Source of the DNA: Escherichia coli
Lineage (GTDB): Bacteria; Pseudomonadota; Gammaproteobacteria; Enterobacterales; Enterobacteriaceae
Assembly: GCF_003334255.1 (NCBI RefSeq)
Contig: NZ_QOWU01000089.1
Strand: one strand, 5' to 3'
Length of the DNA stretch: 9,306 nt
The notes under the pieces were generated by a model. It was given only the letters and a program-made list of their open reading frames with translations. It did not search any database and was not told the DNA's origin. Both the position numbers and the translations under genes were made by a program. Shown in pieces: positions 8,746 through 9,232 of this stretch. Position 1 is the first letter of the stretch, and the number at the start of each line of letters is the position of its first letter.

Positions 8746-9232
8746 TGTTGTGGTCAACTAAAACTGGCCTCCGCGTTAGAGTTTTTCCAGTATCGGTTTT
8801 CTGATTCGTTTGGTGGTAACCCACCATTATATTCGTGCGGTCTTAGTGCGCTGTAATATCCAACGATATAGTCCGTTATTGCGTGAGCTGCATCGCTGAA
8901 GCTTACATAGCCCGTCGCTGGCACCCATTCGTTCTTCAGACTCCTGAAGAAGCGCTCCATTGGGCTGTTATCCCAGCAGTTTCCACGCCGACTCATACTC
9001 TGCCTGATCCGGTATCGCCACAGTAACTGCCGGAACTGCCTGCTCGTATAATGACTGCCTTGATCGCCTGGAACATCACCCCGACGGGCTTACCACGGGT
9101 TTCCCATGCCATTTCCAGTGCTTTCATGGTAAGCCTGCTGTCCGGCGAGAACGACATGGCTCAGCCCACTGGTTTTCTTGCGAACAGGTCGAGAACAACG
9201 GCGAGGTACGCCCAGCGCTTACCCGTCCAGAG
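8746..9232 (-). mobile_element. IS3-family (IS911-like) insertion sequence remnant: one terminal repeat plus the 3' two-thirds of orfB; the 5' part of the element (orfA and the orfB N-terminus) is absent
   Basis: TGTTGTGGTCAACTAAAACTGGCC... at 8746 onward resembles the IS911 terminal repeat as I recall it (TGAAGTGGTCAACAAAAACTGGCC..., imperfect match), with the orfB stop inside it. Minus-strand translation gives IS3-family integrase-core motifs. Homology stops near 9232. Confidence 0.8.
8754..9232 (-). pseudogene. insO: IS3-family (IS911 OrfB-like) DDE transposase pseudogene: N-terminal truncation, nonsense codon and frameshift
   Basis: The minus strand reads WTGKRWAYLAVVLDLFARKPVG[34 protein letters not shown], then after a frame change [25 protein letters not shown] joined to the track [27 protein letters not shown]...[32 protein letters not shown] at complement 9161-9163 replaces the conserved Trp of the IS3-family VGW motif. 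A 1-nt frame change near 9066-9071 disrupts the conserved HSDxG(S/Q)xY motif. No frame continues upstream of about 9232. The symbol follows E. coli K-12 naming for IS911 orfB and is given from memory. Confidence 0.75.

Follow-up and report, generated by a model that had tools for sequence, protein, structure and literature searches.

Copies of the group II intron E.c.I4 occupy specific positions within the transposase genes of IS629, IS911, ISEc16 and ISEc31 (PMC3522654), and the ORF of this intron has been placed in class A, among ORFs that have no endonuclease domain (PMC3552965). One E.c.I4 fragment is listed for Escherichia coli MG1655 (Leclercq and Cordaux, Table 3; PMC3522654). In K-12, the remnant IS911A::IS30A::E.c.I4 (insN-insI1-eyeA-ykfC) is found in CP4-6, and a second locus, in KpLE2, holds the IS911B/insO pseudogene (b4623) beside fecE. 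Intact copies of the related element ISEc52 are present on enterobacterial plasmids. Judged by these records, the components of the locus described below are all ones that have been described or annotated before: the IS pseudogene in K-12 and by PGAP, and the target preference of E.c.I4 in print.

The stretch of DNA that we analysed (the window, 9,306 nt) ends in the tail of an IS3-family element beside fec. Sequence comparisons indicate that this is very probably an old ISEc52/IS911B copy, present beside the fec operon in many E. coli, that has been turned into a nest of mobile elements. The K-12 pseudogene beside fecE is the same IS copy at the same locus, with IS30 in the same place, and has in common with the window a 1-nt deletion at TTCCA/AGCGATC as well as the right end and its flank. 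However, K-12 IS911B has no intron, retains TGG where the window has TGA, and has no A>G change at 9068; it also differs from the type of copy present in strain H3 in its IS600 fragment, its left flank, and an A5 rather than an A6 run. The CP4-6 remnant contains the same nest of three elements, with IS30 and the intron at equal positions, but it occupies another chromosomal location, its intron is cut at nt 1764 by IS5A, and the right-hand part of the IS is absent. Relative to ISEc52, whose right inverted-repeat tip is the same, the window copy has the deletion, a nonsense codon and two substitutions. IS911 has the same IS3-group organisation as the window element, although the tips of the inverted repeats differ (...CACTTCA versus ...CACAACA). 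The intron itself, which is 99.7-99.9% identical to the K-12 remnant and to IS629 copies and lies at the same target position in sense orientation (PMC3522654, PMC3552965), shows no substantive difference from E.c.I4 as described, save that here the IS in which it sits had already become a pseudogene. Finally, the chromosomal element resembles plasmid ISEc52 less closely in its orfA half than in its right part, and for this reason may be a mosaic.

Positions 8746-9231 (minus strand) constitute the right-hand 486 nt of an IS3-family element of the ISEc52/IS911B type and carry the 3' part of orfB, which doubles as the 3' exon of the intron. With intact plasmid ISEc52 this fragment shares 99.18% identity (3 mismatches and 1 gap in 487 nt), and with a copy labelled "IS911 family" it shares 94.2% (27 mismatches in 483 nt), both references being PGAP-labelled copies rather than ISfinder entries. 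By ISfinder convention, elements bear one IS name if they are roughly 95% or more identical in nucleotide sequence. The fragment lies above this threshold for ISEc52 and below it for IS911, and by this measure ISEc52 is the better reference. IS911, which the original prediction had named as the element to align against, was dropped as reference (94.2% as against 99.2%), the verdicts on the lesions being the same with either. The label given in K-12 to the orthologous fec-side copy is IS911B-1/insO.

Translation of the minus strand between 8700 and 9306 yields the C-terminus of an IS3-type OrfB in two frames. The first reads ...WTGKRWAYLAVVLDLFARKPVG, a stop and then AMSF...GVMF, and the second reads ...NSPMERFF...NAEASFS followed by a stop. 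Once repaired, the fragment matches the NCBIfam profile NF033516 (IS3 family transposase) with 174.9 bits (cutoff 160; E=2.8e-51) over profile positions 227-368 of 369. The right end, ...TTGACCACAACA, is the same as that of intact ISEc52, and the flanks differ beyond it. The terminal repeats of the element end in 5'-TG...CA-3', a hallmark of the IS3 family, with the right repeat lying in the window and the left (TGAAGTGGTTTACTGAATTTGGCC) in relatives.

We aligned the fragment with plasmid ISEc52, the PGAP "IS911 family" copy, and the orthologues in K-12, O26:H11 11368, H3 and A27. Judged by this alignment, the nonsense codon and the 1-nt deletion in orfB are genuine, independent lesions. The codon equivalent to the nonsense codon is TGG in intact ISEc52, the IS911-family copy, K-12, O26, H3 and A27. 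The deleted base, between 9069 and 9068, is the C of CAC (His) in TTC CAC AGC GAT (F-H-S-D); the codon for the second catalytic Asp, at 9063-9065, adjoins the affected His codon, and K-12 insO has a curated frameshift at the same base. The neighbouring A>G change, missing from K-12, would convert HSD to HGD. PVGW and FHSDQGSHY are conserved in IS911, and therefore both changes are lesions against IS911 too. A TGA replacing the Trp of VGW at complement 9161-9163, and a 1-nt frame change near 9066-9071 in the HSD motif, had both been predicted from the sequence; the alignment bears out the two changes and the conserved motifs alike, with neither the ISEc52 nor the IS911-family reference sharing the stop or the frame change.

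Table. Features at the right-hand end of the window
Feature	Position	Strand	Basis or remark
Right terminal inverted repeat, intact	8746..8769	-	TGTTGTGGTCAACTAAAACTGGCC on + strand
Natural orfB stop codon TGA	8754..8756	-	translation
1-nt deletion site and A>G at 9068	9068..9069	-	alignment to ISEc52 and IS911-family copy
TGG>TGA nonsense codon, Trp of PVGW	9161..9163	-	caused by T at window 9161
Last 75 nt of group II intron E.c.I4 (3' two-thirds of domain V and domain VI, ending ...CUCUAC)	9232..9306	-	RF00029

IS homology ends abruptly at 9231, and the rest of the window is without further IS sequence. Such a break is what would be seen if a deletion or rearrangement had taken orfA, the frameshift region and the orfB N-terminus and left behind a 5'-truncated fossil, and the original prediction had accordingly described everything upstream as missing. 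However, the break falls precisely where a group II intron has its 3' end. Positions 9232-9306, which on the minus strand read ...GCTGAAAGGTGCACGTCCGGTTC...CTCTTACTCTAC, match the Rfam family for group II intron domains V-VI (RF00029) with 37.9 bits (E=8e-6), a score that is just below the gathering score of 40 for a match that is 5'-truncated by the window end. The full intron of H3 scores 64.9 bits, above gathering, its 3' end falls at the base equivalent to window 9232, and the 75 intron nucleotides of the window are identical to it. The junction 9231/9232 is the 3' splice junction of E.c.I4. Moreover, past the intron the remainder of the IS follows in a contig of the same clone (L015), in H3 and in A27, and we regard a truncation as extremely unlikely. 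The IS appears 5'-truncated because the window ends 75 nt into the intron, probably at the repeat break of a short-read contig. At its other end the window starts 74 nt inside IS1F (1-74), and it has the look of a whole short-read contig with a repeat at either end (k around 77).

The intron is inserted in sense orientation between ...GACCTATA and TCTGGACGG..., with no target duplication. In K-12, O26 and the complete genomes G1/2 the target reads uninterrupted through the same two sequences, the empty site being restored exactly, and the intron boundaries, GTGTG...CTAC, agree with the 5' GUGYG and 3' AY expected of such introns. Two of the three independent lesions that had been predicted, the nonsense codon and the deletion, thus hold, and the third is an intron insertion rather than a 5' truncation.

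When 5,426 complete E. coli genomes were searched with the region by megablast, many of them contained the whole stretch. The window holds 75 nt of the intron, and the architecture beyond 9306 is taken from these relatives. In H3 the order, moving outward on the same strand, is the 486-nt IS tail, the 2,270-nt intron, a 429-nt middle part of the IS (ending ...GGTGATGTGACCTATA), IS30, and orfA with the left repeat; joined, the three IS pieces give a rebuilt element of 1,248 nt. IS30 in this strain is 1,221 nt long, has an AC duplication at its flanks, and lies 5 nt beyond the TTAAAAAAG heptamer. The left inverted repeat of H3 is intact and is accompanied by the orfA part and the A6G heptamer. 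The A AAA AAG programmed -1 frameshift site (TTAAAAAAGGCTAC) of the orfA/orfB overlap, which falls outside the window, is kept in H3, O26 and L015. L015, with 1 mismatch to the window in 9,262 nt, bears the TGA together with a complete intron, IS30 and orfA. In H3 the intron-encoded protein, also outside the window, is intact (a 502-aa ltrA ORF; TIGR04416, 338 bits, cutoff 300), and the intron ORF of L015 contains RVT_1 and GIIM.

The sequence predicted to be missing (orfA, the heptamer, the orfB N-terminus and the left repeat) is, in these relatives, present further on. The frameshift heptamer lies ~4 kb further in the DNA, past the intron and IS30, and ~620 nt upstream within the IS. The claim that the frame change in orfB is distinct from the programmed -1 site agrees with this spacing; the accompanying claim that the orfA/orfB overlap is absent does not, as the overlap lies past the intron and IS30. 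IS30, invisible from the letters of the window, is the decisive extra disruption. With the frameshift region split by IS30, OrfAB would not be made, and the DDE domain goes out of frame at the second Asp. The copy would be dead as a transposase gene and non-autonomous, with both terminal repeats kept, in keeping with the predicted IS3-family orfB remnant that is unable to transpose alone.

The flanks of the element and its form in other strains vary. A 3-bp target duplication around the IS was looked for and not found, the flanks reading ...TGG and GAC... in O26 and H3, and an extra TGAAGTGG octamer is situated just outside the left inverted repeat (TGAAGTGG/TGAAGTGGTTTAC; L001 ~14196-14211, L003 ~5990-6008). 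The missing duplication and the octamer point to rearranged flanks, with membership in the IS3 family unaffected. In O26:H11 11368 (L003, NC_013361.1, ~6330) the fec-side IS is without IS30 and without the intron. The sequence at the IS30 position is GGCTAC-A-ACCGCG in O26, GGCTACCGCG in intact ISEc52, and GGCTAC-IS30-ACCGCG in H3. The 2-bp duplication and one extra A in O26 look like the in-frame footprint of an IS30 excision, and not like a site that was never occupied. K-12 (L002 7126-9007) has another left flank than H3 (L001 12204-14230), and an A5 instead of an A6 run. The left part of K-12 IS911B has a left repeat of the true IS911 type (TGAAGTGGCACAC...), and an IS600 fragment replaces part of the middle. 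Given this mixed left part, at least two IS copies must have recombined to give the K-12 arrangement. Between fecE and the IS lies an 85-aa ORF, WP_000177060.1 (8414-8671, minus strand), which is variously annotated as hypothetical, as "NAD(P)-binding domain-containing", or, in K-12, as a yjhV pseudogene, and which is probably a gene remnant.

Identity to the MG1655 fragment and the published homing site together identify the intron as E.c.I4. It is 99.66% identical over 1,764 nt to the CP4-6 remnant of K-12 (ykfC region), and the match starts exactly at the end of IS911A-1 and stops at IS5A. The same intron is found in an IS629 of A27 at homologous codons, just past the first catalytic Asp. 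This second E.c.I4 copy of A27 (L007 506-3987) is located ~5 kb upstream of fecI; it is 2,268 nt long, with two 1-nt gaps relative to the fec-adjacent copy, and its ltrA is frameshifted. Within domain I of the intron, the heptamer TGTGGGT (nt 263-269) pairs at 7/7 positions with the 5' exons of both ISEc52 and IS629 and is a plausible candidate for EBS1, the chance expectation for such pairing, judged from the sequences, being ~0.1. An EBS2 pairing with both the ISEc52 and the IS629 exons was looked for in the intron and not found. The K-12 sRNA eyeA (L005, NC_000913.3 272580-272654) falls entirely within domain I of the cut-off E.c.I4, at intron nt 390-464, upstream of ykfC, and may be a piece of the intron and not an sRNA gene in its own right.

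The lesions of the element appear to be of very unequal age, the deletion being ancient, the intron polymorphic and the TGA clone-specific. The 1-nt deletion was present in every fec-adjacent copy examined (K-12, O26, H3, A27, G1/2, L015 and 1EC187) and is old because it is common to all of them; that the remnant is an old marker next to fec, as had been proposed, is supported by the first five of these. In contrast to this breadth, the TGA allele occurred in 3 of 5,426 complete genomes (G1/2, G6/7 and G8) when searched with a 55-nt query built so that no seed could match without covering the variant. The window has a rare FecE variant that can be used as a clone tag, and all 10 further public loci listed with this variant carry TGA. 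On this distribution the TGA is recent and private to one clone. With regard to the intron, a spread sample of 60 of the 6,305 matching records contained 4 rows in which the fec-side flank is accompanied by the intron junction and ~18 in which it is accompanied by an empty site, an occupancy at fec-adjacent copies of about 1 in 5 (~4/22 sampled).

The TGA clone holds both occupied and empty intron sites. G1/2 is 100% identical to window positions 1-9231, yet its intron site is empty, as are those of G6/7 and G8, which share the TGA, and those of 8 of the 10 FecE-variant loci among the matches listed. Between assemblies that agree over 9.2 kb at every site, or at all but 1, the 2.27-kb intron is the sole further difference. 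The identity of G1/2 to the window, together with the resemblance of the window to a short-read contig with repeat ends, is compatible with the exon-intron junction being an assembly chimera, in which a G1/2-like source with an empty site had its tail joined to an intron-bearing IS from elsewhere. Two contigs (L015 and L018), from independent assemblies of the clone with the TGA and the FecE variant, have the same junction as the window, and therefore the combination of TGA and intron in the window is real. In addition, L015 spans the whole intron in one contig, and the TGA and the junction are 70 nt apart, close enough for one read to cover both. A chimera is very unlikely on this evidence.

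Within the TGA clone at least three haplotypes can be told apart: empty without IS1A, empty with IS1A, and intron without IS1A. The extra IS1A, found in the assemblies of the G strains (L006/L008, L010-L013) and not in L014, L015 and L019, shortens the AbiJ-NTD4 gene (246 versus 274 aa).

Flanking SNPs do not follow intron occupancy. The TGA clone groups with intron-bearing A27, with which it shares five derived sites, and intron-bearing H3 groups with intron-less 1EC187 and O26; both flank haplogroups contain occupied as well as empty sites. The closeness of the clone's flanking haplotype to that of A27 would fit an intron that was ancestral in the clone, present from the start in an A27-like occupied allele and later lost precisely in G1/2, G6/7, G8 and others, either through gene conversion from an IS copy that has no intron or through recombination involving spliced cDNA. 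Such a history is possible but somewhat doubtful, given the predominance of empty sites among the listed FecE-variant loci and the empty site in G1/2. Precise intron loss is also mechanistically rarer than homing, which counts against it. Furthermore, nt 398 is A in the intron of the clone (398A) and G (398G) in the K-12 remnant and in the introns beside fec in H3 and A27. The allele 398A was considered as a marker unique to the clone and ruled out, since 165 other genomes carry it, including 55989, O104:H4, and plasmids; it still separates the clone's intron from the other fec-adjacent copies. Resting on one SNP and a handful of genomes, 398A tips the balance slightly towards a separate and recent retrohoming in the clone, as against an inherited intron that was then precisely lost. 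We put at about even the chances that a commensal clone related to G1/2, G6/7 and G8 harbours an E.c.I4 that is active at present, and that this intron retrohomed very recently into a long-dead IS.

Ordering the events by the breadth of distribution of each feature, we propose that the locus would have arisen in four steps. The IS would first have lost one base in the codon before the second catalytic Asp, which would put the DDE domain out of frame. IS30 would then have entered 5 nt downstream of the A AAA AAG heptamer, splitting orfA from orfB. In some lineages, the endonuclease-less class A intron E.c.I4 would next have retrohomed, in sense orientation, into the codons just after the first catalytic Asp (DVTY/IW), its usual site. 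Lastly, TGG>TGA would have arisen in one clone. A dead copy would still be open to the intron, as homing is a matter of DNA sequence and takes no account of whether the transposase works. Under the proposed nest, the source DNA beyond 9306 is expected to continue with E.c.I4 and then with ...TATAGGTCACATCACC, the middle part of the IS.

Several points follow for the reading of such loci. What looks like a 5' truncation at the edge of a contig can be the boundary of a group II intron, for which a domain V/VI signature that ends in AY and abuts a homology break is the tell-tale. The lesions of one pseudogene can vary hugely in age, here with one species-wide, one polymorphic and one private to a clone. 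Biologically there is little at stake in the locus itself, which is ordinary, already annotated E. coli debris, and the presence or absence of the intron within the clone is a small but usable marker for E.c.I4 mobility and for strain typing of the lineage. If the recent homing is true, dead IS copies would constitute a standing reservoir of homing sites for E.c.I4, and occupancy at one orthologous site would turn over repeatedly.
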